Assembly (NCBI GenBank): GCA_020199905.1
Contig: JAIVJS010000021.1
Span: forward strand, 14,649-78,648
Direction of reading: 5' to 3'
Source: Acidobacteriota bacterium
Lineage (GTDB): Bacteria > Acidobacteriota > Thermoanaerobaculia > UBA5066 > Gp7-AA6
Length of the DNA stretch: 64,000 nucleotides
Position 1 is the stretch's first letter; each line of letters starts with the position of its first letter. Below the pieces are notes generated by a model that had not been told where the DNA came from, ran no database searches, and saw nothing but the letters and a program-made list of their open reading frames with translations. A program made the translations under genes and the position numbers. Positions 3,780 to 42,037 of this stretch are shown here, piece after piece.

Positions 3780-6700
3780 TCACCGCGCGCGCTCCATTCC
3801 GGAAGCACGCAGGGTCCCCTTCCTGCGCGCGCGTTCCTTCATCAGCAAAAAGATGACGGGCGTGACGAGGAGCACATGAAGCGTCGACGTGAGCATTCCT
3901 CCCACGATCGGGGTTGCGATCGGGCGCATCACCTCGGATCCGGTTCCCGTCGACCAGAAGATGGGCACGAGCGAGAGAATCGCGGCGGATACCGTCATCA
4001 GCTTCGGGCGAAGGCGCAACACGGATCCTTCGCGAGTGGCCTCGAGCACGTCCTCGCGAGTCAGCTCGCCCTTGCCAATGCGCTTGTCGAGCGCCTCGTG
4101 GAGGTAGATGACCATCAGGACCCCGGTCTCCACGGCGACCCCGTAGAGGGCGATGTACCCGATCCAGACGGCGACCGAAAAGTTGTAGCCCAGCAGCCAC
4201 TGGAGAATGACACCGCCTGTCATGGCATAGAGCACGGACAGCATGACGATGGTCGCTTCCGAAGCGGATCGGAACGTCATCGTGAGCAGGATGAAGATCA
4301 GGCCGAAAACGATCGGCAAGACAACTTGAAGGGTCTTCCGGGCATGAACCTGGAACTCGAACTGGCCGGTCCAGTCGAGCGTCACCCCCGCCGGCAGCTT
4401 CACACGCTCGCCCACGCGGCGCTGAGCGCCGTGCACGAATCCCACGAGGTCAGACGTCGTCGTGTCGACGTACACGATTCCGGAGAGGCGTCCGTTTTCG
4501 TCCTTGTACATCGGCGGCCCGGAAACGATGCGAAGCGTCGCGAGCTGTCCCATCGGAATCTGCGCGCCGGATGGCGTCATTACGAGGACGCGCTTGAGGG
4601 ACTCGAGGTCGCTTCGAGAATCCCGCGGGTAGCGAACGAGCACCGTGAAACGCCGCCGCCCCTCGACCGTCGTGGTCACCATTTTTCCGCCGGTCGCGGC
4701 TTCCAGGGTGTTCTCGATCTGCATTACGGAGAGCCCGTAGCGTGACGCCGCATCCCGGTCCACCGTGAAGTCGAGATAGGACCCGCCCGTCGTCCGCTCG
4801 GCATACACGCTGCGGGCGTCCGGCAGGTCTCTCAGAGCGTTCTCGATCTCGAGGCTGACTTTTTCGATGACGGAGTAGTCGGGGCCATACACCTTGACAC
4901 CGACCGGCGTACGGACCCCGGTCGCCAGCATGTCGAGACGGTTTCGGATCGGTTGGGTCCACGCGACCGGCATCCCGGGGACCTGAAGCTTCTCGTTCAT
5001 CGCGGTCACGAGCTCGTCCTGGGTCGCGGACCGGCTTTCCGGCCAGATCGGGCGGAAAACGGGTTTGATCCAGCCGGGCCATTTGGAATACCAGCGGGCA
5101 TGAAATCCCCTGGGCCAGTCGGACCGCGGCTTCAAAACGATCGTCGTTTCGAACATCTCCATGGGCGCCGGATCGGTGGAGCTTTCGACCTTTCCCGCTT
5201 TTCCGAGCACGGACTGAACTTCGGGAAACGTTCGGATGATCCCGTCGGTCTTGACGAGCACGTCGCGGGCCTGCTCGACCGCCATCATCGGGAGACCCGT
5301 CGGCATGTACATCACCGAGCCTTCCCGCAGCGGCGGCATGAACTCGGAGCCGAGAGACAGGGCAAGAGGCACGACCGCGGGCACGAGGAGGAAATTCAAC
5401 AGGAGCGTCGTCCTGGGGAAACGGAGGGCGCGATTCAGAACGGGGGCGTAGAGCCGCCGAAAAAACATCGCGATCGGGTTCTGCTCTTCGGCGCGGATCC
5501 GCCCCCGCATCCAGAAGACCATCAGGACGGGCACCAGGGTGACCGACAGAAGAGATGCCGCCGTGATCGCGAACGTCTTCGTGAAAGCGAGCGGATGGAA
5601 GAGGCGGCCTTCCTCGCCTGTCAGCAGGAACACCGGCAGAAAAGAGACGACGATGATGATCAGCGAGAAGAAGATCGGCCTGCCCACCTGCTGCGAGGCG
5701 GCGACGATCGCCGATTCATGTCCCTCCTTCCCGGCCTTCGGATCCACCCCGGCCAGATGACGGTGCGCGTTCTCGACCATGACGATCGACGCATCGACCA
5801 GGACCCCGATCGCCAGAGCGAGGCCTCCCAGGGACATGATGTTGGACGAGACGCCGAGCAGGTACATGGGCAGGAACGAAATCGCGATTGCGATGGGAAG
5901 GACCGTGATGGGAACCAGGGCGGATCGAAAGTGGAACAGGAAGAGAGCAATGACCAGCGCGACGACGATCATTTCCTCGACGAGCGTTTGACGCAGCGTG
6001 TCGATCGCGCGCCGGATGAGGCCCGTTCGGTCGTAGGCGATTTCGAGCTTCACGCCGGGAGGAAACGAGGAGGAGAGCTCGGCGATCTTCTTCTTCACGG
6101 CCTCGACGACTGTGAGGACGTTCTCTCCCGAGCGGACGATCACGACGCCGCCGACCGCTTCGCCTTCGCCGTTCCAGTCGATCACGCCGCGCCGCATTTC
6201 CGGGCCGAAATGGACCGAGGCGACATCGGAGAGGTACACGGGAGTGCCGGTCGACACTTTCGAGCGGATCGAAATCCGCCGGAGGTCATCGAGGTTCTGA
6301 AGATAGCCGCGACCGCGCACCATGTATTCGCGCCCCGACCATTCGACGACCCGGCCGCCGACGTCCCCGTTGCTCTCCTGGACCGCGGTCAGCACATCCT
6401 GAAGGCCGATGCGGAACGACGCCAGCCGGGCCGGATCGACCTCGATCTGGTATTGCTTCTGGAACCCGCCGACGGATGAGATCTCCGCCACGCCCGGCAC
6501 CGCGCGCAGCCAGTAGGAGAGGTCCCAGTCCTGAAAGGTCCGCAGATCGGCGAGGGAATGCCGGCCGCTCCTGTCCACGAGCACGTATTCGAAGCCCCAC
6601 CCGACCCCCGTGGCGTCCGGACCGAGGTTCGGATTGACCTCGGGAGGAAGCTGGCCCTTCAGGCCGTTCAAGTACTCCAGAACCCGGCTTCTTGCCCAGT

Positions 6701-8488: not shown

Positions 8489-9773
8489 GCGGTTCTCCTG
8501 GCGATGGGGTTCCGGCAATGAGGGGAAGGCCGGAGGCTTTCTGAAGAGCGGCGAGCGCGCGGCCAATCCCGGCGGCGCGCGTCGCGATCTCGCCTTCGTA
8601 GGTATCGAGGTCGAGAGCCGCGCGCACGTACGTCTCGAAGTCGATCTGACCGACCGCGTAGGACTCCTGCGCCGCTCGGAAGTTGATCTCCGCCTGGGGC
8701 ACGATCGTGGTGCGATAGAGCTTCTCCTGCTCGACGTTCCGCTCGAGCTCCACCGCCGCCGCTTCCACGTCGCGGCGAATCTGGTTTCGCACGGCTTCGA
8801 GATCGGCCCGAGCCGAAGAGAGCTCCGCCGCCATTTCGGCGCGTTTCGCCTCGAGGCGGCGAGGATGCGCGAAGGGAAGGTTGATGGAAACGAAGGCGCC
8901 GGCAAGATCCTCGAACTTCTCGCGGCGGCCGTAGTAGGTCGAGACCATCCAGTCGGGCCTGCGGTCGAGCCCCGCCAGCCGCAACTCCTCTTCGGACCGG
9001 CGCAGCGTCGCTCGCGCTGCGGCAACCGCGGGGCTCTTCTCCTCCGCCTCGCGTTCTACGGCGGCGGAATCGGGAATCGAGGGAACCGGATCGAGAGGCC
9101 CGATGACAGGGACTGCGGCCCTGGCGGGAAGAGCCTGCAGGGCGTTCCACCGCGCCGAAAGCACCCGTCTCTCGGCTCTCAACGAGAGGAGACGATCCTC
9201 GAGCGCGGTCGCCGCCAGGTTGGCGCGGAGCACGTCGCTCTGCCCGGCCTTGCCCACCTCATAGCGTTCCTTAGCCGACGCCGAGGTCGTCTTGAGGCGC
9301 TGGCGGGATCGTTCCAGAATCTCCAGGCGCATGTCGAGCTCCGCGATCCCGAAGAAGGCGTCGGCGACGTCGGCTGCAATCCCGACAGCGTGGACGGCAT
9401 GCATCGCGAGCGCATTCTCGGAAGCGGCCTCCGCCGAAGCGCGACGCGTCGCGAGTTTTCCGCGTCCCGGCAGGCTCTGCCGTGCGGTGATCATCTCCAT
9501 CGTGAAGTTGTCCCGCGTGAGCGACGGGCTCGAGACCGGAATGTCCTTGATCCCGACTTCCAGCTCCGGATCCGGGAAAGAGCCGGCCTGAGCGACTCGC
9601 TGTCGAGACGCCTCGATTCGTGACTCCATTGCGGAGAGCTCGGGATTCCTGGCCACGGCGAGTCGGATTGCCGATTGAAGCCTCGAGCTCCAATCCGGAT
9701 CGGCGACGGGACTCTGGCCTTTTACAAAGGGCGCGACGGCGAAAATCGCCGTCGCCAGGCGACGCAGACGCAT
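8478..9773 (-). CDS. TolC-family outer membrane factor (CusC-like)
   Basis: LAVARNPEL, FPDPEL, SINLPF; position upstream of cusBA. Confidence 0.9.
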   Translation of the reverse strand: MRLRRLATAIFAVAPFVKGQSPVADPDWSSRLQSAIRLAVARNPELSAMESRIEASRQRVAQAGSFPDPELEVGIKDIPVSSPSLTRDNFTMEMITARQSLPGRGKLATRRASAEAASENALAMHAVHAVGIAADVADAFFGIAELDMRLEILERSRQRLKTTSASAKERYEVGKAGQSDVLRANLAATALEDRLLSLRAERRVLSARWNALQALPARAAVPVIGPLDPVPSIPDSAAVEREAEEKSPAVAAARATLRRSEEELRLAGLDRRPDWMVSTYYGRREKFEDLAGAFVSINLPFAHPRRLEAKRAEMAAELSSARADLEAVRNQIRRDVEAAAVELERNVEQEKLYRTTIVPQAEINFRAAQESYAVGQIDFETYVRAALDLDTYEGEIATRAAGIGRALAALQKASGLPLIAGTPSPGEPHEK

Positions 9774-19646: not shown

Positions 19647-20090
19647 ATGAATAGAAAATGGCTCTTCGCGGCGGCTCTTGGGGCGGTGATCGTGACGGGC
19701 GTGTCGTCGCCGGCCCTGGCCGACGAGTATTGTGCGAGTCCCTACGCCGGTCAGAACGTTTACGTCGGCGGCGGGTACTCCCACGGGAACGGCGGATATG
19801 GCTACGTCCGCCAGCACGATTCGTACAACGGTGGATACGGGTACCAGGGAAATTACGGCTACCAGGGAGATTACGGCTACCAGGGAGATTACGGGTATCA
19901 GGGTAACTACGGTCACGGTGGATACCCGCAGACGCGATACCAGTATTCGCAACCCTACTACCAGGACGGCTACGGACGCCAGGGTTACGGCGCCACCGTG
20001 CACGAGGACCACACCAGGATCACCTTCAAGCCGTTCCCGTTCCCCCACATTGAAAAGCGCGTCGTCCATCACGAGCATCCGATTTACTGA
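19647..20090 (+). CDS. Secreted Gly/Tyr-rich low-complexity protein
   Basis: Signal peptide, GYQG(N/D)Y repeats, His-rich C-terminus, terminator downstream. Confidence 0.7.
   Translation: MNRKWLFAAALGAVIVTGVSSPALADEYCASPYAGQNVYVGGGYSHGNGGYGYVRQHDSYNGGYGYQGNYGYQGDYGYQGDYGYQGNYGHGGYPQTRYQYSQPYYQDGYGRQGYGATVHEDHTRITFKPFPFPHIEKRVVHHEHPIY
19839..19910 (+). repeat. Coding tandem repeat, 4 x 18 bp
   Basis: GG(G/C)TA(C/T)CAGGG(A/T)(A/G)A(T/C)TAC x4, encoding GYQGNY/GYQGDY. Confidence 0.9.
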
Positions 20091-20456: not shown

Positions 20457-22922
20457 GTGAGCAGTAAAGAACAGCGGCCCCCCGAGGCGAAGTCCGGAGC
20501 GAACCCTCTCAGGGATGCGGTCTGCGGGATGACGGTTTCGGAAGAAAGTTCCCATCGGGAAACATGGAACGGCCGGCCGTTCGTCTTCTGCAGTGCAGGG
20601 TGTCAGGAGAAGTTCAGGGAGCATCCCGAGCGCTACGTTCTCCGGCCCGAACCAGTGCCTCTTGCCGCGACCGGGACTGCGCCGGCGCCCATCGCTTCGG
20701 GAGAGAGTTTGACTTGCCCGATGCACCCGGAAGTCCGAGAAAAGAGCTCCGGCTCCTGCCCGAAGTGCGGCATGGCCCTCGAAGGAGTGATCCCCTCGTC
20801 TGCGGCCTCGAGGGCGCAGTGGACCTGCCCGATGCATCCCGAGATCGTCCGCGATGGTCCCGGCAGCTGTCCGATCTGCGGGATGGCGCTCGAGCCGCGG
20901 ACGATTTCGGCAGGCGACCGAGAGAATCCCGAGCTGGTTGACATGCGGCGGAGGTTCGCAGTCTCCGCTGTGCTGTCCGTTCCCCTTCTCGTCATTGCCA
21001 TGCGCGACCTCCTCCCGGGATCTGCCGGAATGGGCGCCTCCGGGGTCCTGCCGTGGGTCGAGCTCGCGCTGGCGACGCCGGTTGTCGTGTGGGGGGGCTG
21101 GCCCTTCTTCGTTCGGTTTGCGCAGTCGATCCGAAATCGCAGCCTGAACATGTTCACGCTGATCGGCCTGGGCGTCGCCGTCGCGTACTTCTACAGTCTG
21201 GCGGCCATCTTCTTTCCGGGTCTTTTCCCCGCGTCGTTCCGGGATGCTTCAGGACACGTCGGGCTGTATTTCGAAGCGGCGGCCATCATCGTCACGCTCG
21301 TGCTTCTGGGCCAGGTTCTGGAGTTGAAGGCCCGGAGCCAGACGGGTGCGGCGATCCGCGCCCTCCTGGATCTCGCCCCGAAGACCGCCCGCCGCATCGA
21401 GCAGGGCGGCGCCGAGGTCGATATCCCTCTCGATCAGGTCCAGGTCGGCGATCGGCTCCGGGTTCGGCCGGGGGAGAAAATTCCGGTCGACGGGAGCGTC
21501 GTGGAAGGCCACACCGCGGTGGACGAGTCGATGGTCACGGGTGAGCCGATTCCGGTCGAAAAGAATGCGGGTGATCGACTCATCGGATCCACGGTCAACG
21601 GCACCGGCTCGGTCGTCCTGACCGCGGAACGCGTCGGGGCCGAGACGATGCTTTCTCAGATCGTCCGGCTCGTCAGCGAAGCGCAACGCACGCGCGCGCC
21701 GATCCAGAAGCTCGCCGATCTGGTGGCCGGCTACTTCGTTCCGATCGTCATTGCCGTCGCCGTCATCACCTTTGGCGTCTGGGCGTTCGCCGGGCCCGAT
21801 CCCAGGATGGCTCATGGTCTCGTGAACGCGGTCGCGGTCCTCATCATCGCCTGCCCCTGTGCCCTCGGGCTCGCAACGCCGATGTCCATCATGGTGGCGA
21901 CCGGGAAGGCGGCAAAAGCGGGGGTGCTCTTTCGAAATGCCGAGGCCATCGAGTCCTTGCGAAAGGTCGACACCCTCGTGATGGACAAGACCGGAACGAT
22001 CACGGAAGGAAAGCCTAGGGTCGCAGAGATCCTGGCGCAGCCCGGATTCGAGGAGGCGGAAGTGCTTCGACTCGCGGCGAGCCTCGAGAGAGGAAGCGAG
22101 CATCCTCTGGCGGCATCCATCGTTGCGGCCGCCGGAGAGAGGCAGGTCCGACTCGAGCCAGTCGGCGACTTTCAATCGCGGACGGGACGAGGCGTGTCGG
22201 GCCGGGTTGCAGGACGCGCCGTCGCGCTCGGAAACGCGGCTCTCCTGGCGGAAATGGGCCTCGATCCGGCAGGGCTCGGCGCTCGGGCGGAGGACATGCG
22301 GTCGCGGGGTCAAACGGCGGTCTTTCTGGCCGTGGACGGAAAGATGGCCGGGATTCTCGGCATCGCGGATCCCATCAAGAAGACGAGCCCGGAGGCGATC
22401 GGCCACCTCCGCGCCGAAGGGATCCGCGTCGTCATGCTCACCGGCGACAGCAAGACCACCGCGAACGCGGTTGCGAAGGAGCTCGGAATCGACGAGGTCG
22501 TCGCGGAGGTGCTCCCGGAGGACAAGGTGAACGTCATCAAGCGCTATCAGGCTGAAGGCCGGTTCGTGGCGATGGCTGGCGACGGGGTCAACGACGCTCC
22601 GGCCCTCGCCCAGGCGCAGGTCGGAATCGCGATGGGGACGGGAACGGACGTCGCGATGGAAAGCGCCGGCGTGACGCTGCTCCGAGGCGACCTCCTGGGA
22701 ATCGTGCGTGCCCGAAGCCTGAGCCGCGCGACCATGCGGAACATCAAACAGAATCTCTTTTTCGCCTTCGTTTACAACGTGCTCGGAATTCCCATCGCAG
22801 GGGGCGTTCTCTATCCTTTTTTCGGTGTTCTTCTGAGCCCGATGATCGCTGCCGCGGCGATGAGCTTCAGTTCCGTTTCGGTGATCGGGAATTCACTGAG
22901 GCTGAGTCGAACGAAAGTTTGA
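20457..22922 (+). CDS. copA: Copper-translocating P1B-type ATPase with N-terminal YHS and two heavy-metal-binding repeats
   Basis: DAVCGM..FCSAGC, TCPMHPE x2, [35 protein letters not shown]. Confidence 0.95.
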
Positions 22923-23145: not shown

Positions 23146-23448
23146 ATGAAGAGGTCTCTTCCCGTGATGGAAAAGGTTTTCGTGCCAGACCGGCGCAAGG
23201 AGGCCGTTCGGGCTCGTTTGAAGCGTGCGCGAGGGCAGGTGGATGGGATCGAGCGGATGCTGGAGGAAAACCGACCATGCGCCGAGGTTCTTCAACAGAT
23301 CGCGGCCGCGCAGGAGGCTCTGCGGGCCGCCGGGAAGCTCATGGTCCGAAGCTACATCGAGAAGTGCGCGGCGGAGGGAATCAGGGCCGGTCGAACGGAG
23401 GAAGTGTACGACGAGCTTTTGGACATCATCTACCGGATGGTCCGGTAA
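23146..23448 (+). CDS. CsoR/RcnR-family metal-sensing repressor
   Basis: RLKRARGQVDGIERMLEENRPCAEVLQQIAAAQEAL...YIEKC. Confidence 0.9.
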   Translation: MKRSLPVMEKVFVPDRRKEAVRARLKRARGQVDGIERMLEENRPCAEVLQQIAAAQEALRAAGKLMVRSYIEKCAAEGIRAGRTEEVYDELLDIIYRMVR

Positions 23449-23498: not shown

Positions 23499-24356
23499 TT
23501 GATAAGAGCGACGTCGGCTCTCGCCGTTCTCGCCGCCCTGACGTTGTATCCGGCCGCCGCGCGAGCAACCGGGCACGGACCCGTGTACGGGGTCGCGACC
23601 CCGACGCTCGCGAAAGGCGCCTGGAGTCTGGATCTCGGGGTGATGAGCCGGAGCGTGGCCCGGAACAACACCTCCGTCATGTTGCGCCCGCTCATCGCGT
23701 ACGGAATCACGGAAGACCTGCAGGTCTCGGCGTCTCTCCCGGTGCCGCTGTACACGCCGGAGGGCATGCGTCCGGTCCGGATGATGGCCATGATGCCCGC
23801 GACCCCGGACGTCGAGGTGCTGCTCGGCTGGCGATTTCACCGGGAGGGCACCGGCGTCGGGTCCCGATTCGAGAGCACGGCGTACCTGGGCGTGGACTAT
23901 CCGACCGACTCGGTGCGCAACGGAGTCAAGACCTCTCCCGGCATCTACGCGGCCGCGGTGACCGGTTACGCCTCTCGCTCCGTCTATGCCTGGGCGGGTG
24001 GAATGTACAGGCGTTATCTGAGCCCGACGGGACCCACGACCGATCACCCGGGCGACCTTCTGATGTGCAGCCTCGTGGTCGGATATCGCCCGCCCGTCTT
24101 TCGCAAGGAACTGCCGCACGCCGACTGGCGAGTCTTCATCGAGGCGATCGGCGAGGTCATCGACCGGGATCGGCTGGCGGGCGGTGAACTCCCGAACACC
24201 GGAGGCAAACGGATCTTCGCAGGCCCGACGCTGCTCGGTCTCTACGGTTCGTGGGGGCTGTCCGGCGGTCCCATCTTTCCCGTCTACACCCGGCTCAACG
24301 GAACCCAGCCGAAGGATCGGGTGCGGATGGTCGTGAATCTGACGTACTGGTTTTAG
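23499..24356 (+). CDS. Putative outer-membrane beta-barrel transporter
   Basis: Signal peptide, GHGPVYGVATPTL, Met-rich loop MMAMMP, terminal aromatic VNLTYWF. Confidence 0.65.
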   Translation: MIRATSALAVLAALTLYPAAARATGHGPVYGVATPTLAKGAWSLDLGVMSRSVARNNTSVMLRPLIAYGITEDLQVSASLPVPLYTPEGMRPVRMMAMMPATPDVEVLLGWRFHREGTGVGSRFESTAYLGVDYPTDSVRNGVKTSPGIYAAAVTGYASRSVYAWAGGMYRRYLSPTGPTTDHPGDLLMCSLVVGYRPPVFRKELPHADWRVFIEAIGEVIDRDRLAGGELPNTGGKRIFAGPTLLGLYGSWGLSGGPIFPVYTRLNGTQPKDRVRMVVNLTYWF

Positions 24357-24368
24357 ATTGGGGGCCCA

Positions 24369-24890
24369 ATGAGACGAGTCATCGGTTCGGCCGCGCTCTT
24401 TAGTCTTCTCATGGCCGCTTCGGCGGCGGGAGAGATTCGGGAAATCCGGCAGGGGATCTTTGGAATGGATTGAGCGGTTTGCGCTCACGCCGTGAGCGTG
24501 GCCATGAAGAAGGTACCCGGCGTCGAGACGGTGCAGGTGTCGCTGAACAAGGGTGAGGCGGTCTTGAAGCTGAAGCAGGGCAATTCGGCCACCGTTGCGC
24601 AGATTCGTCAGGTGGTGGTCGATACCGGTTTCACGCCGAAGGATGCAGACATCGAAATCGCGGGGAAGCTGGTCGAAAGAGCGGGCAAGGCGGCGTTGGC
24701 CGTCTCGGGGACGGCGGTCGTCTACTCGCTCGTCGACCATCGGCAGGCTGTCGGAAAAGTCGATCAGCTGTGGAGGGAAGCCCGGGACAGGGACGTGGTC
24801 CTGCGCGGGCATCTCCCCGAGACCACGACGAAGGGAAAGGCCGAAGAACCTCGATCTCTCGAGGTCAGAGGTTTCGAGATGAAGCGATGA
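24369..24890 (+). CDS. Secreted HMA-domain selenoprotein (UxxC), 173 aa with Sec35
   Basis: ATG 24369, signal peptide, then IFGMD-TGA(24471-73)-AVCAHAVSVAMKKVPGVETVQVSLNKGEA in frame with ORF 24492..24890; TGA occupies the first Cys position of GMxCxxC. Confidence 0.85.
24476..24503 (+). promoter_or_regulatory. Candidate bacterial SECIS element
   Basis: CGCTCAC-GCC-GTGAGCG core stem (24482-98), extended by G-U and G-C pairs to 24476/24503; loop starts with G, 15 nt after the UGA. Confidence 0.7.
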
Positions 24891-25265
24891 GCGAGTTGCC
24901 GCATCCTCCTGGTGGGGGCGATCACGTTTCTCTATTGACGCGGCATGGTTCCGCAGCCCTGCGCCTCGTCGGTATCGCCATCAGTCTCTATCCGCTCGTC
25001 AAGACGGGCACGCACGGCGCGGCCTTCCATGAACCTCTATCCGGGCGGCCTGCTCGGGGTCAGCGTGGGAAAGACGTGTCCGCGGTGAGGAGAGCGTCAA
25101 TCGGAGAGAGGGAGGGGACATGTGGAGAAGAAAAAACCAGCAGCCCGACCCGGCGTGATCGCGGGCGACCGTGCCAGGGGGATACGGCGCCGCGGATCGT
25201 ACCGTGATGCGGGCGGAGGATCCCGACGACGGCTTCGAGTCCACGAGCCCCCGACGCCTTCCCGC

Positions 25266-25294
25266 TTGACACCGGCGCCTTCGAGGAATGGAAT
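25266..25294 (+). promoter_or_regulatory. Candidate sigma70 promoter for cutA
   Basis: TTGACA-N17-TGGAAT. Confidence 0.45.
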
Positions 25295-25304
25295 GTCGAA
25301 TTGC

Positions 25305-25709
25305 ATGCGCAGCCAGGACCTCATCGTGGTGGTCACCTCGGTCGGAACGGAAGAGCAGGCCCTGGACATCGCGCACGCCCTGATCCGGAATCGCCAGGCG
25401 GCGTGCGTCAACCTGATCCCGAACGTGCATTCGATCTACCGCTGGAAGGGCCGCGTGTGCGACGACGGGGAGTTCCTCCTTCTGATCAAGAGCCGCGCCC
25501 GGGAGTTCGAGGGCGTCTGCGAGACCATCCAGAAGATCAATACGTACGAGCTTCCCGAGATCCTGGCGTATCGCGTCGACGAGAGTTCTCCCGGCTTCGC
25601 GGACTGGATCACGCGGACGACGGAGCACCCCAAGCGCAAGTCGAAGAAGAAGGGTCCGAAGCTGGTCGCGTCTCCCGTCCCCCTGCGCCGCCGCGCCGCC
25701 TCCCGTTAG
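25305..25709 (+). CDS. cutA: Divalent-cation tolerance protein CutA with a basic C-terminal tail
   Basis: AACVNLIPNVHSIYRWKG, EFLLLIKS, NTYELPEIL. Start is 25293 or 25305. Confidence 0.9.
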   Translation: MRSQDLIVVVTSVGTEEQALDIAHALIRNRQAACVNLIPNVHSIYRWKGRVCDDGEFLLLIKSRAREFEGVCETIQKINTYELPEILAYRVDESSPGFADWITRTTEHPKRKSKKKGPKLVASPVPLRRRAASR

Positions 25710-28146: not shown

Positions 28147-29292
28147 TCAGGCGGGAATGGCCTCGAGCGCCTGGGCGAGGTCGGCGGTCAGATCCTCGAC
28201 GTCCTCGATCCCGACGGAGATGCGCACCAGGCCGGGTGTGACGCCGAGGCGGCTTCTCTCCGGCTCCGGGATCGCCGCGTGGGTCATGCTCGCCGGATGG
28301 GAGATCAAAGTCTCGACGCCGCCGAGGCTCTCGCCGAGCGAGCAAAGGCGCACGCGGCCGAGAAACGCCGCGGCGTTTTCGAAGGAGCCGAGGTCGAAGG
28401 AGATCATCGCGCCGAACCCGCGCATCTGCCGTTTGGCGAGCTCGTGCTGCGGATGCGTCGCCAGGCCGGGGTAGTTCACTTTCCGGATCTTCGGCTGGCC
28501 GTCGAGAAACGCGGCGACGGCGCGGCCGTTGGACTCGTGCCGCTCCATGCGCACGACGAGCGTCTTGATTCCGCGCAGGACCAGCCAGGAGTCCATCGGC
28601 CCGAGGATCGCACCGGAGCTGTTCTGCACGAAGGAAAGCCACTCGAGGTGCTCGGGACTCTTCACCACCGCGATGCCGCCGATCGAATCGGAATGTCCGT
28701 TCAGGAACTTCGTCGTCGAGTGATAAACGATGTCAGCCCCGAGGACGAGGGGCTGCTGCAGATAAGGCGACGCGAACGTGTTGTCCACGACGACGATGGC
28801 GCCCCGCTCGTGCGCCATCCCCGAGAGGAGCGGAATGTCACACAGCGTCATGATCGGGTTGGTCGGGCTCTCCAGATGCAGCAGGCGGGTCGTCGGGCGG
28901 AACGCGCGGAGCACCTCGGCCGGATCGGCCGTGTCGACGAACGAGAACTCGACACCGTATCGGGCCTGGATCTGCGTGTAGTAGCGGTAGGTCCCGCCGT
29001 ACGTCATGTTGGAGCAGACGACGTGATCTCCCGATTTCACGAACGTGGAGATCGCGGTCGCCGCGGCCATCCCGGACGCGAAGGCCCGCGCGCCGACGCC
29101 CTTCTCGAGAACCGCCATGTTCTCCTCGAGGGCGTGGCGCGTCGGGTTCTGCGTGCGCGCGTACTCGTACCCCTTGTGCTTCCCCAGCGCCTCCTGCACG
29201 TAGGTGGACGTCTGGTAGATCGGCACGGCCACGGCCCCGGTCGACGGGTCCGGCAGATTGCCCGCGTGAATGCATTCGGTGCTGAAGCCCAT
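28147..29292 (-). CDS. Cystathionine gamma-lyase/synthase family PLP enzyme
   Basis: PIYQTSTY, YARTQNPTR, ESPTNP, VDNTF, HSTTKFLNGHSD, SLGGVETL. Confidence 0.95.
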   Translation of the reverse strand: MGFSTECIHAGNLPDPSTGAVAVPIYQTSTYVQEALGKHKGYEYARTQNPTRHALEENMAVLEKGVGARAFASGMAAATAISTFVKSGDHVVCSNMTYGGTYRYYTQIQARYGVEFSFVDTADPAEVLRAFRPTTRLLHLESPTNPIMTLCDIPLLSGMAHERGAIVVVDNTFASPYLQQPLVLGADIVYHSTTKFLNGHSDSIGGIAVVKSPEHLEWLSFVQNSSGAILGPMDSWLVLRGIKTLVVRMERHESNGRAVAAFLDGQPKIRKVNYPGLATHPQHELAKRQMRGFGAMISFDLGSFENAAAFLGRVRLCSLGESLGGVETLISHPASMTHAAIPEPERSRLGVTPGLVRISVGIEDVEDLTADLAQALEAIPA

Positions 29293-29451: not shown

Positions 29452-30396
29452 CTATCTCCCGAATATCCCCTGTTCCGGGTACCTTTCCGCCCCGTCGGGG
29501 AAGACGGTGACGACGATTTTCCCCGGCCCGATGCGCTGCGCGATCTGGAGGGCGCCGGCGGCGGAGAGCCCCGAGGAGCCGCCGGCCAGCAGCCCCTCCT
29601 CGCGCCCGAGGCGGCGGCACGCGGCGAAGGCCGCTGGGTCGTCGACCGTGATGACTTCGTCGATGAGGCTGCGGTCGAGGATCTCGGGGTAGAAGGAGAG
29701 CCCGACCCCTTCGACGGCGTGCGTCCCACGCGGCCCGCCGCCCAGGATCGACCCCTGCGGCTCGACCGCGACCTTCAGCACTCTCGGGTTACGCTCCATG
29801 AGGTACCGCGCCACTCCCGTGAAGGTGCCGGTCGTGCCGACTCCCGTGACCCAGGCGTCGACTCGTCCGGACAGCGCTTCCCAGATCTCGGGTCCGGTCG
29901 TTTCGTAGTGAGTGCGGGGGTTGATCGGGTTGGCGAACTGGTTGGGGAGCCAGGCTCCGGGGGTCTGCGCGACGATGTCGCGTGCGCGCTGGATCGCGGC
30001 GCTCATGCGATCCGCGGCGGGTGTTCGCAGGACCTCCGCGCCGAAGGCCTCCATCAGGCGCGCCTTGACGTGCCCGGCCCCGTCCGGCATGACGATCAGG
30101 CATCGATAGCCCCGGACGGCCGCGAGCATCGCGAACGCGACCCCCGTGTTACCCGAGGTCGGCTCGACGATCGTTCCGCCGGGGGCGATGAGGTTCCGCG
30201 CCTCCGCGTCGTTCAACATCGCCGCGGCCACGCGATCCTTGACGCTTCCTCCGGGATTGAACCATTCGAGCTTGGCGAAAATCCGCGCCGCTCCCGCCGA
30301 GAAGCGCGGAAGCTCGACGAGCGGGGTGTTGCCGATCGCCCCGGCCAGGGTCGCCGGGTGGCTTGCGATCTCGGGAGAGGGGAAGGAAGGCGGCAT
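29452..30396 (-). CDS. Cysteine synthase / cystathionine beta-synthase family PLP enzyme
   Basis: IGNTPLV, KLEWFNPGGSVKDR, EPTSGNTG, GVGTTGT, GGSSG, FPDGAERY. Confidence 0.9.
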   Translation of the reverse strand: MPPSFPSPEIASHPATLAGAIGNTPLVELPRFSAGAARIFAKLEWFNPGGSVKDRVAAAMLNDAEARNLIAPGGTIVEPTSGNTGVAFAMLAAVRGYRCLIVMPDGAGHVKARLMEAFGAEVLRTPAADRMSAAIQRARDIVAQTPGAWLPNQFANPINPRTHYETTGPEIWEALSGRVDAWVTGVGTTGTFTGVARYLMERNPRVLKVAVEPQGSILGGGPRGTHAVEGVGLSFYPEILDRSLIDEVITVDDPAAFAACRRLGREEGLLAGGSSGLSAAGALQIAQRIGPGKIVVTVFPDGAERYPEQGIFGR

Positions 30397-30427
30397 CCGC
30401 ACGTCAAGATAGCAAAACGGGGGCCTG

Positions 30428-30460
30428 GTTGAGCGTTGAGCGTTCCGCGTTGAGCGTTCG
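30428..30460. repeat. Heptamer tandem array
   Basis: GTTGAGC GTTGAGC GTTCCGC GTTGAGC GTTCGGA. Confidence 0.8.
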
Positions 30461-30525
30461 GAAGGAGAAACCGGTGAAATGAACATGGCGTTTCGCGATT
30501 TTCCTTCGATCCCGATTCCCGATTC

Positions 30526-30567
30526 GTACCGCGGCCGTCTCGCTCCCGTTGGTCGCTCGGCTCCCGA
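30526..30567 (+). repeat. Dispersed REP-like element, copy 1 (partial)
   Basis: GTACCGCGGCCGTCTCGCTCCCGTTGGTCGCTCGGCTCCCGA, matching copies 3 and 4. Confidence 0.9.
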
Positions 30568-30571
30568 AAAG

Positions 30572-30601
30572 AAAAAGCCCCGGCACGCGCCGGGGCTTTT
30601 T
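30572..30601. terminator. Bidirectional-type intrinsic terminator
   Basis: AAAAAGCCCCGGC-ACGC-GCCGGGGCTTTTT. Confidence 0.85.
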
Positions 30602-30616
30602 ACCGGGGCGATGAGT

Positions 30617-30916
30617 TCAGTAGGCCTGCTGGGCGCGCCGGGCCGAATAGCATTCCCGGCAATAGACGGGCTTGCCATTGGTCGGGTTGAACGGAACCTG
30701 CGTCTGCTTCTGGCAGCCGTCGCACGTCACGTCGTAGAACGTCCGCTCGCGGCCTTCGCCCGAAGAAGTCTTGCGCTTGTCGCGGCAGATCTTGCAGCGC
30801 TTGGGCTCGTTGGTGAATCCCTTGCGCGCGTAGAACTCCTGGTCGTCGGCGGAAAACAGGAACGTCTGGCCACAGTCGACACAGTTGAGATTCTTGTCGG
30901 TGTATTGCTGCATCAT
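30617..30916 (-). CDS. Zinc-ribbon plus CxxC-x17-CxxC domain protein
   Basis: CVDCGQTFLFSADDQEFYARKGFTNEPKRCKIC and CDGC...PVYCREC. Confidence 0.9.
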   Translation of the reverse strand: MMQQYTDKNLNCVDCGQTFLFSADDQEFYARKGFTNEPKRCKICRDKRKTSSGEGRERTFYDVTCDGCQKQTQVPFNPTNGKPVYCRECYSARRAQQAY

Positions 30917-40121: not shown

Positions 40122-40139
40122 CCCCATATAGTTCCCGCG

Positions 40140-42037
40140 TGAAGCGATTCTTGATCGGCACCGCGGGGCACATCGACCACGGGAAGACCGCGCTCGTCAA
40201 GGCCTTGACCGGCATCGACGCGGACCGGCTGCCGGAGGAGAAGCGGCGCGGCATCACGATCGATCTCGGGTTCGCGCACGCGGAGTGGGAGGGCGTGCGC
40301 GTCTCGTTCGTGGACGTTCCCGGCCACGAGCGGTTCGTCAGGAACATGCTCGCGGGGGCGGGCGGGATCGACGCGGTGCTCCTCGTCGTGGCCGCGGACG
40401 AGTCCGTGATGCCGCAGACGCGCGAGCACTTCGACATCGTGCGGATGCTGGGGATCCGGCGTGGCGTGATTGCCGTGACGAAGATCGATCGAGTCGACGA
40501 GGATCTGCGGGCCGTCACGATCTCGGACGTGCGCGATCTGACAGCCGGTTCCTTTCTGGAGTCCGCCCCGATCGTGCCGGTCTCGGCGCGGACCGGGGCG
40601 GGGTTGCCGGCCCTCCAGAAGGCCCTGGTCGCGCTCGCTGGCGACGAGAGCGCGTCCCCGCGCGAGTCCCTGCTCGTCCGGCTGCCGATCGACCGCGCGT
40701 TTTCGATCGCGGGGTTCGGCCCCGTTGTGACGGGCAGCCTGGTCTCCGGAACCATCTCGACCGAGCAGAAGCTCGAGCTTCTCGCGTCGGGACGGCCCGT
40801 GCGCGTGAGGCGGATCGAGGTCCACGGCCGGGAGACGCCTGAGGCCCGGGCGGGCGAGCGCGTCAGCGTGAATCTCGCGGGCATCGAATTGCCGGACCTG
40901 CGCCGCGGTCTGGTGCTTGCGACCCCGGGGGCGTTCGCCACCACGTCTCTCCTGACCGCGCGCGTTCACCTTCTGCCGGGCGCGCCCGAGCTTTCGAGCG
41001 GAGACCGGGTGTCGCTTCATCACTTCTCCGCCGAGCTGCGCGCCGGAGTCCGACTCCTCGAAGACGAGACGCTCCCGCCCGGCGGAAGCGGGCTCGCGCA
41101 ACTGCGTCTCTCCGCCGCGATCGCGGCGGCGCCCGGCGACCGGTTCGTACTGCGCCGTCTTTCGCCGGTCGAAACCGTCGGAGGGGGTATCGTTCTGGAC
41201 CCGCTCTGGCCGGGGGCTCGCCGGGCGAGAGAGGAGAGCCGGTCCTCGTTGTCGCGATTCGAAGGCGCCTCCGCGGCGGAACGCATCGCCGTCTGGGTCG
41301 AGCAGGCGAGAGAGTCGGGCGTCTCGGAAGAGGATCTGGCGCGGCGCGCCGGCGTAGCCACCGAACGGATTCGCGCGGACGCCGCCGCGGCGATCGGCGC
41401 GGGAAAAATCCACGCGCTACGGAGGTCTCCCGAACGCTACATGGCCGAGAGCACGCTCGTTCGGGTCGCCGGACGGGCGCTCGACGAAATGGCGCGCCTC
41501 CTCTCCGCGGGCGGGGCCGTCGGCGTCTCGCGGCGGACGCTTCTCGCGCGCATCCTTCCCGGCGCGTCGGATGCGCGGTGGGCGGAGGCCGTCGAGGCGG
41601 CGCTGGTCGCCCGCGGCGCCTACACCCTGGCGGGCGAGGAAGCCCGGCCGCCGGGGCGCGACGATCTCGGCGGCGCCGATCGGGAGCTCTCTTCGCGCAT
41701 CGCGGACACGTACCGCCGACGCGGGCTCGACCCCCCGTCGCTGCCGGACGTGACCCGTGAGATCGGACACAAGGCGAAGGTGGTCGAGGGCCTCGCCGGG
41801 TACCTCGTCAAAAAGGGGACACTGCTGCGCCTGCCGGGCGGGTGGCTGATCGCCAGAGAAGCGGTGGACGACGTCGTCTCGAAGCTTCGCGGCTCCGGCC
41901 GGCCGTCGCTCGACGTCGGAGAGTTCAAGGAGATGTTCGGACTGACGCGGCGGCTCGCCATCCCCCTTCTCGAGTATCTCGACGGGGCGAAGATCACGCG
42001 GCGGGTCGGCGACCGGCGGGAGATTCTGCCGGGCTAG
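40140..42037 (+). CDS. selB: Selenocysteine-specific elongation factor
   Basis: [39 protein letters not shown]; C-terminal winged helices ([29 protein letters not shown]). Confidence 0.95.

Follow-up and report, generated by a model that had tools for sequence, protein, structure and literature searches.

Selenoproteins with an HMA Metal Site

The decoding of UGA as selenocysteine (Sec) is an established mechanism in bacteria and is applied here to positions 24369-24890 of a 64 kb stretch of Acidobacteriota DNA (the window). The predicted product of this locus carries a signal peptide, an HMA domain with a UxxC motif and a probable C-terminal OB-fold. The UxxC HMA domain is already known from a Sec-containing cation-transporting P-type ATPase of the E1-E2 family, such as ABB15669 (PMC2398784, PMC9312934, PMC13188914). 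In both cases, Sec stands at the first Cys of the GMxCxxC motif, the UGA is accompanied by a 3′ hairpin and SelB, and the setting is one of heavy metals. However, the HMA of the ATPase is a cytoplasmic N-terminal domain of the pump, whereas the window protein is free-standing, carries a signal peptide predicted to export it as well as an OB-fold, and is paired with an outer-membrane barrel.

Other known systems also carry an HMA module. The NCBIfam family NF041115 (UxxU_metal_bind), termed "putative mercuric reductase" in PMC13188914, is likewise a small HMA-type metal-binding selenoprotein, but its motif is UxxU with two Sec residues, and its members are ~74 aa long and lack the OB domain; with a cut-off of 95 bits for this model, the window protein reaches 34.3 bits and the other members of the HMA(UxxC)-OB family 32-46 bits. 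A "Mercuric transport protein MerP" selenoprotein was predicted from two GOS reads and appears as a table entry without further description (PMC2398784). MerP (TIGR02052) shares with the window protein the order of signal peptide and HMA and a periplasmic location; the window protein differs by the extra OB-fold and by its CsoR/CopA context, in which no mer operon was seen, and it scores 36.1 bits against a cut-off of 92.55. The copper chaperones CopZ and TTHA1718 have the same fold and motif, yet CopZ is cytoplasmic, single-domain and Cys-based, while the window protein combines two domains with a signal peptide; its scores against the CopZ models NF047957, NF033794 and NF033795 are 46.2, 39.2 and 36.5 bits for cut-offs of 85, 95 and 91, respectively. 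Finally, the MerT/CopZ fusion-like selenoprotein NF045683 also combines an HMA module with Sec and metal transport in one protein, but it is a 235-aa membrane MerT fusion, against which the window protein scores 20 bits (cut-off 375).

The HMA(UxxC)-OB family thus falls below every NCBIfam cut-off. Apart from two reviews, the literature found on HMA, copper-chaperone or MerP selenoproteins comprises the entries in the GOS table and a bioRxiv preprint of 2022 on new families of selenoproteins; the HMA(UxxC)-OB family is described in none of these. HMA(UxxC)-OB is a new family of an already known kind of selenoprotein, in keeping with the view of the first-pass annotation that HMA/MerP-like selenoproteins had been reported before and that the class itself is not new (PMC2398784; NCBIfam NF041115, NF045683).

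One Reading Frame Interrupted by UGA

The locus almost certainly encodes an exported metal-binding protein whose metal site has Sec in place of Cys1. The best explanation of the whole, to which we assign a probability of roughly 0.87, is a single exported protein of 173 residues whose UGA is decoded as Sec. The frame runs over 174 codons from ATG 24369 to a TGA stop at 24888-24890, with the TGA of codon 35 as its sole internal one (Table 1). Its read-through product begins with the predicted signal peptide MRRVIGSAALFSLLMAASAAG, followed by EIREIRQGIFGMD-U-AVCAHAVSVAMKK..., and reads GIFGMD(U)AVCAHAVSVAMK around residue 35, at which selenium would be incorporated. The first-pass annotation had described this frame, with a signal peptide from ATG 24369, then IFGMD-TGA-AVC with the TGA exactly at Cys1 of the HMA motif, and an exported product of 173 aa that a standard gene caller would truncate. 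Each of these points holds: the frame is one, its length is confirmed, the signal peptide is recognizable in the sequence, and in full-length homologs the residue aligned with the TGA is Cys1 of GMDCxxC.

Table 1. Features of the locus and its surroundings (window coordinates).
Feature	Coordinates	Strand	Details
CopA-type P1B ATPase	20457..22922	+	Pfam E1-E2_ATPase, Hydrolase, HMBD, YHS; N-terminal YHS plus 2x HMBD
CsoR-family metal-sensing repressor	23146..23448	+	Pfam PF02583, 85 bits
Outer-membrane beta-barrel "OMP285", conserved partner gene	23499..24356	+	Met-rich loop MRPVRMMAMMP, C-terminal YWF
Selenoprotein CDS read through UGA (best explanation), complete	24369..24890	+	173 aa plus stop; signal peptide, HMA(UxxC) domain, OB-fold domain
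Predicted Sec-type signal peptide	24369..24431	+	MRRVIGSAALFSLLMAASAAG; probable cleavage before EIREIR
HMA domain, residues 30-88	24456..24632	+	motif G-M-D-U35-A-V-C38; Pfam PF00403
UGA predicted to be read as selenocysteine (residue 35)	24471..24473	+	aligned to TGC/TGT (Cys type) and TGA (Sec type)
Hairpin H1, of the first-pass annotation	24481..24499	+	GCGCUCAC-GCC-GUGAGCGU; alternative register overlapping H2
Hairpin H2, family-conserved, SECIS-like	24485..24501	+	UCACGC-CGUGA-GCGUGG; first position U/C in family; RNAalifold consensus
Predicted C-terminal OB-fold domain, residues ~93-171	24645..24881	+	AF2 topology b1-b2-b3-helix-b4-b5
CutA1	25122..25709		
selB, selenocysteine-specific elongation factor	40139..42037	+	632 aa, GTG start; NCBIfam TIGR00475 335.9 bits vs cut-off 242.25

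The mechanical list of open reading frames splits the gene in two, namely 24369-24473 (34 aa) and 24492-24890 (GTG start, 132 aa). The same split recurs in the protein database, where all Sec-type members are stored truncated, either unnamed or as "hypothetical protein" or "copper chaperone CopZ". In the six public entries P0001-P0006 the sequence begins with MKKV or MCAHAV, and the stored versions have lost the signal peptide and half of the metal site.

In the window, TGA otherwise serves as an ordinary stop: it ends 9 of the 20 long ORFs as well as the HMA gene itself, so the genetic code is standard. Nor is the internal TGA a read error, a possibility raised at the outset and now excluded, since two independent assemblies of near-identical organisms (L005 and L009; 96-97% identity) carry it as well. 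A scan of the window for other TGA-split ORFs, with a coding-like GC3 filter too strict to recover 24471 itself, returned one weak candidate at 5101, which falls within a long ORF of the opposite strand and was discarded.

Sec-Type and Cys-Type Relatives

Scans of genomes and metagenomes recovered relatives with either TGA or a Cys codon at position 35. TGA is found in 75 related loci (63 distinct), on contigs from ENA, JGI, NCBI and Logan, and TGC or TGT in 73 loci (68 distinct), mostly from Acidobacteriaceae. Named genomes with the TGA type belong to Thermoanaerobaculia (L009, L010), Bryobacterales (L011, L033), an Acidobacteriota MAG (L019) and Gemmatimonadota (L157), and dozens of assemblies from soil bacteria contain this hidden gene. 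The assembly JBBRDK01 has the locus of the window at 94-98% identity. Every Sec-type locus has the motif UxxC. Cys-type homologs are full-length proteins of 159-185 aa in which the motif reads VFGMDCAPCAH, and such copies occur in cultivated bacteria, among them Terriglobus roseus DSM 18391 (locus L065) and Tunturiibacter lichenicola MP8S11 (locus L012). JGI labels the Cys-type homologs "copper chaperone CopZ". One cluster holds both types, which indicates that the two states interconvert.

Taken alone, the window contains only an in-frame stop, as would an ordinary Cys-type HMA gene inactivated by a nonsense mutation or an assembly error and yielding no full-length product; one related locus (L001), moreover, is truly truncated or rearranged. 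Against such a pseudogene, TGA is kept at codon 35 in the 63 distinct loci, which span at least two phyla and go down to ~36% protein identity, far beyond chance. The stop at this position is TGA every time and never TAA or TAG, and the independent assemblies L005 and L009 agree. Purifying selection is seen on both flanks. In particular, the codons -14 to -1 show 103 synonymous versus 12 non-synonymous differences among eight Thermoanaerobaculia-type sequences, so that the 14 codons upstream of the TGA evolve as coding sequence. The comparative data effectively refute the pseudogene, to which we leave practically no chance.

The database entries point the same way. In all six truncated homologs with intact N-terminal DNA (P0001-P0006), TGA occupies the corresponding codon, and their upstream frame is conserved and includes a signal peptide. 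The only long NCBI contig (L001/P0007) was set aside as evidence on the TGA: its copy is N-terminally truncated and rearranged, and hence uninformative.

A SECIS-Like Hairpin in Two Registers

The first-pass annotation had noted a hairpin (CGCTCAC-GCC-GTGAGCG) shortly after the UGA. This hairpin, H1, is indeed present, but the register conserved in the family (H2) lies 4 nt further 3′. In the window, H1 forms a perfect 8 bp stem of -12.0 kcal/mol, compared with -7.1 kcal/mol for H2. Across 56 distinct sequences, H2 is paired in 97.9% of cells and H1 in 86.8%; the central U-A pair of H1 forms in 2 of these relatives, no covariation was found for H1 among them, and its pairing is complete only in the window and the nearest relatives. 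H2 has two pairs with double changes (C-G to U-A), both from L033, so its covariation comes from one divergent sequence. Energy does not separate the two overlapping registers; the family-wide evidence favours H2. H2 is also kept in the Gemmatimonadota locus L157, which was found independently of the peptide of this gene.

Folding of single sequences agrees with the unremarkable stability of this region: compared with shuffles, z was -1.34 for 24471-24510 and +0.17 for 24465-24535, values that are not exceptional and by themselves say little. The minimum free energy structure of the single sequence, a hairpin that includes the UGA itself (UGAGCG-GUUUG-CGCUCA), is broken in homologs and was rejected. 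No SECIS family of Rfam matched the whole window at the gathering threshold, nor positions 24440-24560 at E values up to 10, where only a chance snoRNA match appeared.

The signal lies in the synonymous sites. The block CACGCCGUGAGCGUG is near-invariant in the Sec type, and its synonymous sites are frozen in that type only. At codons +5 to +9 (CAC GCC GUG AGC GUG), third-position entropy is 0-0.23 bit in the Sec type and 1.0-1.8 bit in the Cys type, as against 1.2-1.9 bit in the rest of the gene. A peptide pattern overlapping the SECIS region yielded most of the metagenomic Sec-type loci, so the amino-acid invariance there is partly ascertainment; the pattern leaves synonymous sites unconstrained, and their freezing also holds in 12 sequences obtained without this peptide. 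These data uphold the proposal of a SECIS-like element directly 3′ of the UGA.

The element resembles the SECIS of Escherichia coli fdhF, a hairpin inside the ORF and directly 3′ of the UGA, with a G and a U in the apical loop about 20 nt from it. The fdhF loop bases are G23/U24; those of H2, at 24492-24493, are G22/U23, counted from the U of UGA, and follow the UGA by 19-20 nt. In contrast to fdhF, the stem here is shorter (5-6 bp), the loop is CGUGA, and no bulged U was identified.

The window also encodes SelB. Its presence had been noted and is borne out by TIGR00475, but its start is the GTG at 40139 and not 40140 as first given. Only a tRNA-Met was found in the 64 kb window with ARAGORN and Rfam, with no tRNA-Sec, and neither selA nor selD was recognized among the window ORFs examined. 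An AIRS-domain gene beside the Gemmatimonadota locus, considered as selD, turned out to be ThiL. In the proposed mechanism, SelB would carry Sec-tRNA(Sec) and be recruited by the hairpin located within the coding sequence just 3′ of the UGA, most probably in its H2 form; the ribosome would then insert Sec at the UGA instead of terminating.

Two other uses of the UGA have to be considered. The locus might give two products, a 34-residue leader ending at the UGA and a cytoplasmic protein of 128-132 residues started from GTG 24492 or ATG 24504, with the UGA and hairpin serving as a termination-reinitiation or attenuation device. Both starts exist, gene callers pick them, and the current annotation matches this division. 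Yet beta-strand 1 and one half of the HMA metal site would be missing from the downstream piece, and the 34-residue piece can be aligned, residue by residue, to the signal peptide and first strand of the Cys-type proteins. Furthermore, the conserved nucleotides are those of the hairpin and not of a Shine-Dalgarno sequence, no ribosome-binding requirement is conserved, and SelB is present. We regard the two-product arrangement as highly unlikely.

Alternatively, the UGA could be read through by something other than, or in addition to, Sec, through near-cognate Trp or Cys or through Cys carried on tRNA(Sec) at low selenium. The Cys-type orthologs show that Cys works at residue 35, and the mixing of the two types within one cluster fits this as well. 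But a SelB-type hairpin at the canonical distance together with selB are specific requirements of Sec, plain leakiness would leave the 3′ synonymous sites unfrozen, and a TGC codon would do without cost were Cys intended. Such read-through is very unlikely, and insertion of Sec is the reading retained here.

Domains and Predicted Fold of the Product

The signal peptide, as read from the sequence, starts with a basic n-region, continues with a hydrophobic core and ends in small residues, and it aligns with the ...AAHA/EY... leaders of Cys-type homologs, so that the HMA protein would be exported. With U replaced by C, residues 30-88 match Pfam HMA at 39.3 bits (gathering score 24.8). The AF2 model covers residues 36-173 with a mean pLDDT of 89.6, rising above 90 in the OB-fold part. 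It contains the alpha-beta-beta-alpha-beta remainder of the HMA domain; strand 1 and the Sec position lie outside the modelled piece. Foldseek matches this HMA to TTHA1718 (2roe), with 44% identity over 52 residues and an rmsd of 1.8.

An extra C-terminal beta domain had been proposed, and the model gives it an OB-fold topology. No Pfam model matches this domain, and its Foldseek matches are weak, comprising the OB domains of LysRS/AspRS, SSB and NlpE (E 3e-3 to 5e-2, TM 0.3-0.5). After cleavage of the signal peptide, the mature protein of ~16 kDa would therefore present a periplasmic HMA domain fused to a C-terminal OB-fold, in which the selenolate of U35 and the thiolate of C38 could form a two-coordinate site for a soft metal ion.

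A Barrel Partner and a Copper Island

The gene had been placed in a copper island, and the CopA, CsoR and CutA1 genes around it confirm this. The conserved two-gene module of barrel and HMA protein is absent from the first-pass annotation. In nearly every Sec-type and Cys-type locus with enough upstream sequence, the barrel gene lies directly upstream of the HMA gene. The encoded protein has a signal peptide and an antiparallel barrel of 12-14 strands (AF2, pLDDT 85), no Pfam or NCBIfam model matched it, and its Foldseek matches are FapF (5o68) and the COG4313 channel (4rl8) (E 5e-9, TM 0.6-0.7). The csoR gene is syntenic in Thermoanaerobaculia-type loci (L002, L009, L010, L078, L079), and CsoR is the likely regulator of the module there. 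In Bryobacteraceae and Gemmatimonadota, the regulator of the pair is of the MerR family instead. The copA gene also adjoins the module in L009, L018, L031, L045 and L136.

Because in this Thermoanaerobaculia-like acidobacterium the barrel-HMA pair sits behind csoR and copA, the HMA-OB protein is likely to be a periplasmic chaperone for Cu(I) or another soft metal. It would most likely capture and hand over periplasmic Cu(I), and possibly Ag(I) or Hg(II), and the captured metal might then be sequestered or passed through the barrel. Gene neighbourhood is what suggests the probable metal specificity and a possible link to the barrel.

A true selenoprotein with a role other than copper is also conceivable, although we do not favour it. 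The protein could serve the detoxification of Hg, Ag or another chalcophile element in the manner of MerP, or act as a periplasmic thiol-selenol oxidoreductase. The MerR-family regulators of Bryobacteraceae and Gemmatimonadota would suit such roles, as would the weak matches to the TIGR02052 MerP and MerTP models, the MerP-like selenoprotein from GOS (PMC2398784) and the fact that UxxC is also a redox motif. On the other hand, a CsoR regulator and an adjacent copA are found in the window and in all Thermoanaerobaculia-type loci, neither merT nor merA was seen among the adjoining genes examined in the window, and the Met-rich loop of the barrel belongs to a type that serves for Cu(I)/Ag(I). The preferred role thus remains that of a Cu(I) or soft-metal chaperone.

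Significance

Recognizing this family corrects a recurring database annotation error and adds an exported metal-binding family to a prokaryotic selenoproteome otherwise made up mostly of cytoplasmic redox enzymes. It also puts Acidobacteriota and Gemmatimonadota of soils among the users of Sec, provides a short and very well-conserved SECIS signature for finding more such genes, and brings with it a partner barrel that represents an uncharacterised family without a Pfam model. The natural Sec/Cys pairs of one protein constitute a clean system in which to ask what benefit a selenolate brings to a metal chaperone.

More speculatively, HMA(UxxC)-OB and the Met-rich barrel may together constitute an as yet undescribed two-component system for the soft metals Cu(I), Ag(I) and Hg(II) that leads from the periplasm to the outer membrane, is widespread in soil Acidobacteriota and Gemmatimonadota, and has been upgraded to a selenolate in many lineages, with CACGCCGUGAGCGUG as a minimal SECIS that spans these lineages. 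We consider this combined proposal less likely than not. If it is true, the CACGCCGUGAGCGUG element could serve to search these phyla for more selenoproteins that have stayed hidden, and copper or mercury tolerance in soils would be tied to the availability of selenium.

An In-Frame TGA in the HMA Motif

The HMA gene is a single frame extending from ATG 24369 to the terminal TGA at 24888-90, and its internal TGA lies in the stretch ...GGA ATG GAT TGA GCG GTT TGC GCT CAC GCC GTG AGC GTG GCC ATG AAG.... The mechanical ORF list splits the gene at this codon into pieces of 34 and 132 codons, the second with a GTG start at 24492. The read-through product, MRRVIGSAALFSLLMAASAAG-EIREIRQGIFGMD-U-AVCAHAVSVAMKKVPGVETVQVSL..., has a signal-peptide-like N-terminus. 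With U replaced by C, residues 30-88 score 39.3 bits against the Pfam HMA model (threshold 24.8 bits), which places the TGA exactly at Cys1 of the GMxCxxC motif, as the first-pass annotation had it. A reassigned genetic code is rejected because TGA serves as an ordinary stop in the window, ending 9 of its 20 long ORFs as well as the HMA gene itself. The window also encodes SelB (TIGR00475, 335.9 bits against a cut-off of 242.25 bits), as previously recognized, although its GTG start lies one base before the coordinate first assigned, which is out of frame. Searches of the window with ARAGORN and Rfam found no tRNA-Sec, tRNA-Met being the only match. The observation is correct, and the selenoprotein interpretation stands with small corrections.

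Coordinates of features in the window and in related loci
Feature	Sequence	Position (strand)	Details
Gly/Tyr-repeat protein	window	19647-20090 (+)	GYGYQGNYGYQGDYGYQGDYGYQGNYGHGGY...
CopA-type ATPase	window	20457-22922 (+)	
CsoR regulator	window	23146-23448	
Barrel gene	window	23499-24356	directly upstream of the HMA gene
HMA gene	window	24369-24890 (+)	internal TGA 24471-24473
Hairpin H1	window	24481-24499	GCGCUCAC-GCC-GUGAGCGU; 86.8% of cells paired, 56 distinct sequences
Hairpin H2	window	24485-24501	(U/C)CACGC-CGUGA-GCGUGG; RNAalifold consensus; 97.9% of cells paired, 56 distinct sequences
Cystathionine gamma-synthase/lyase-type gene	window	28147-29292 (-)	
Cysteine-synthase/CBS-type gene	window	29452-30678 (-)	
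selB	window	from 40139	GTG start
Truncated HMA-OB copy	L001, DASYUL010000020.1	5145-5693	Thermoanaerobaculia MAG
MerR-family regulator	L011	2660-3130	
MerR-family regulator	L157	5181-5600	
OsmC-like ORF	L157, JACQVF010000115.1	9119-9589	in-frame TGA 9317-9319
Cys-type pair and surroundings	L065, NC_018014.1	3719224-3727547	Terriglobus roseus DSM 18391

Relatives Carrying TGA or Cysteine

Querying proteins with the read-through sequence gave relatives of two kinds. Seven close database relatives (63-97% identity) are just 106-137 residues long; six start MKKV..., MQKV... or MCAHAV..., and the seventh (P0007), starting further in, is a rearranged copy (locus L001). More distant relatives are full length (163-174 residues) and read ...VFGMDCAPCAHAIHVSMKG.... 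In the DNA of the short relatives, the corresponding codon is TGA in all loci with an intact 5′ region (L002-L008), and upstream of it each has a conserved frame for a signal peptide and GEIREIRQSIFGMD. Homologs carry either TGA or Cys at this position. The L001 copy, truly truncated at its N-terminus and rearranged, is the exception; the inverted 3′ end of the barrel gene precedes it, which points to rearrangement or misassembly, and a separate contig of this MAG (L010) holds a TGA-type copy that is intact.

Scanning one genome per species, and then metagenomes, widened both types. TGA-type genes occur in two Thermoanaerobaculia MAGs and in one MAG each of Bryobacteraceae, Bryobacterales and Acidobacteriota, with dozens more on metagenomic contigs. 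One Thermoanaerobaculia locus (L009) is 96% identical, and its synteny with the window runs from copA and csoR through the barrel and HMA genes to cutA and the gene after it, which makes it very probable that the window derives from Thermoanaerobaculia as well. About 55 Acidobacteriaceae/Terriglobales genomes have TGC or TGT at the codon, among them those of Terriglobus roseus DSM 18391 and Tunturiibacter lichenicola. A Gemmatimonadetes MAG (L157), reached via the neighbouring gene and not via the HMA gene, also reads TIFGMD-TGA-AVCAHAV. Altogether, the TGA type comprises 75 loci, of which 63 are distinct over 153 nt, and the Cys type 73, of which 68 are distinct. In the 14 codons ahead of the TGA, eight Thermoanaerobaculia-type sequences show 103 synonymous against 12 non-synonymous changes, so that the stretch left untranslated by the annotation is under protein-level selection in the HMA frame. 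This selection, together with the recurrence of the TGA across relatives, excludes a pseudogene, and the same recurrence excludes a read error. Sec-type members form at least nine divergent subgroups, and one cluster holds both types, which implies that Sec and Cys have been interconverted repeatedly.

The Recoding Signal

Taken alone, the window sequence gives a fold no better than those of its shuffled versions, and its hairpin region matches no Rfam family. Alignment of the relatives argues strongly for a recoding signal. Over codons +5 to +9 (CAC GCC GUG AGC GUG), third-codon-position entropy of Sec-type genes drops to 0-0.23 bit, against 1.2-1.9 bit in the rest of these genes and 1.0-1.8 bit at the corresponding codons of Cys-type genes. 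A peptide pattern overlapping these codons ([HR][AV]V[SN]V[AT]M[KQ]K) supplied most of the metagenomic loci, so that their amino-acid constancy is partly ascertainment, but the pattern leaves synonymous sites unconstrained, and the 12 sequences obtained independently of it likewise show zero entropy at codons +5 to +8. In L011 and L019, the ~39 nt after the TGA are almost identical to the window, in proteins just ~38% identical overall. The constraint is RNA-level, Sec-type-specific and at SECIS distance.

Two overlapping hairpins, H1 and H2, fit this quasi-palindrome. H1, proposed in the first-pass annotation, is present in the window, but family-wide pairing is better in H2. The central U-A pair of H1 occurs in only 2 of 56 sequences, and its lower stem is interrupted where Ser or Gly takes the place of Ala. 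In the divergent L033, both sides of an H2 pair have changed, from C-G to U-A, and L157 retains H2 with the loop CGUGC. Folding energies of H1 and H2, respectively, are -12.0 and -7.1 kcal/mol in the window, -10.4 and -9.4 kcal/mol for the family consensus, -5.6 and -9.5 kcal/mol in L157, and -8.3 and -3.3 kcal/mol in L033; these values do not settle the register. In the H2 loop, G and U lie 19-20 nt beyond the UGA, a spacing close to the fdhF arrangement. Because the frozen synonymous sites span the H2 columns and the loop G/U lies at this distance, H2 is taken as the putative SECIS core at the family level.

Partner Barrel and Genomic Neighbourhood

The barrel gene precedes the HMA gene in essentially every Sec- and Cys-type locus with enough sequence. 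It has no Pfam or NCBIfam match and 787 database homologs, Gemmatimonadota ones included. Its product, which ends in YWF and bears a conserved Met-rich loop (MRPVRMMAMMP), is modelled as an outer-membrane beta-barrel (pLDDT 85) closest to FapF and the COG4313 channel (E 5e-9, TM 0.6-0.7), and would represent an uncharacterised family of such barrels. The copper context described earlier holds, with CopA, a CsoR-family repressor and CutA1 flanking the HMA gene, and copA adjoins the barrel-HMA pair in several lineages. The regulator before the pair is CsoR in Thermoanaerobaculia-type loci and MerR-family in Bryobacteraceae and Gemmatimonadota; the metal sensed may therefore differ between lineages.

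The CopA-type ATPase of the window has an N-terminal YHS domain and two PF19335 HMBD motifs instead of HMA domains, and just upstream lies a gene for a small secreted-looking protein, mostly Gly/Tyr repeats. A few kb from the selenoprotein gene, two adjoining genes appear to encode cystathionine gamma-synthase/lyase-type and cysteine-synthase/CBS-type enzymes, suggestive of sulfur (or selenium) amino-acid metabolism. In Terriglobus roseus, the Cys-type pair sits among CDF cation-efflux, outer-membrane efflux protein and resolvase genes, which hints at a mobile island for metal resistance; the strain is cultured and could be used for genetics.

Protein Architecture and Proposed Mechanism

The AlphaFold model (residues 36-173, 28-sequence alignment, mean pLDDT 89.6) comprises the remainder of the HMA fold, matched by Foldseek in the PDB to TTHA1718 (2roe, 44% identity), and the extra C-terminal beta domain predicted earlier, with topology b1-b2-b3-helix-b4-b5. 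This second domain, covered by no Pfam model, gives weak matches to OB-folds, namely the anticodon-binding domains of LysRS/AspRS, SSBs and NlpE, at E 3e-3 to 5e-2. In the proposed mechanism, SelB with Sec-tRNA(Sec) would bind the hairpin and insert Sec35, and the exported HMA-OB protein would bind a soft metal ion through U35 and C38, most likely Cu(I) in the window organism because of the CsoR/CopA context. The HMA-OB protein and the Met-rich barrel may cooperate in metal sequestration or passage across the outer membrane; docking of the OB domain to the barrel is a guess.

Relation to Known Selenoproteins

Sec-containing HMA modules are on record: the GOS selenoproteome lists a UxxC P-type ATPase and a 'MerP' (PMC2398784), and further cases are NF041115, a UxxU metal-binding protein (PMC13188914), and NCBIfam NF045683. 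Four members of the family, the window protein among them, fall under the curated cut-offs of NF041115 and NF045683, and of the MerP and CopZ models too; the table of a 2026 review holds no PF00403 or exported HMA entry. OsmC-like selenoproteins are also tabulated in PMC2398784, and an OsmC-like ORF in L157 (GCA_016209885.1), divided by gene calling at its TGA (...VVAAAAG-TGA-LTGTLGG...) into genes of 66 and 89 aa, is probably a second selenoprotein on a contig with a Sec-type HMA gene. As foreseen for standard gene callers, Sec-type members stand in public records in truncated form, either without a name or under the label 'hypothetical protein' or 'copper chaperone CopZ'.

HMA-OB proteins form a new family within a known kind of selenoprotein; their architecture is unusual, and their gene has a partner. 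Understanding of Sec decoding and of HMA proteins is unchanged; the finding fixes a recurrent mis-annotation, provides a sharp SECIS signature and extends Sec use to abundant soil phyla.
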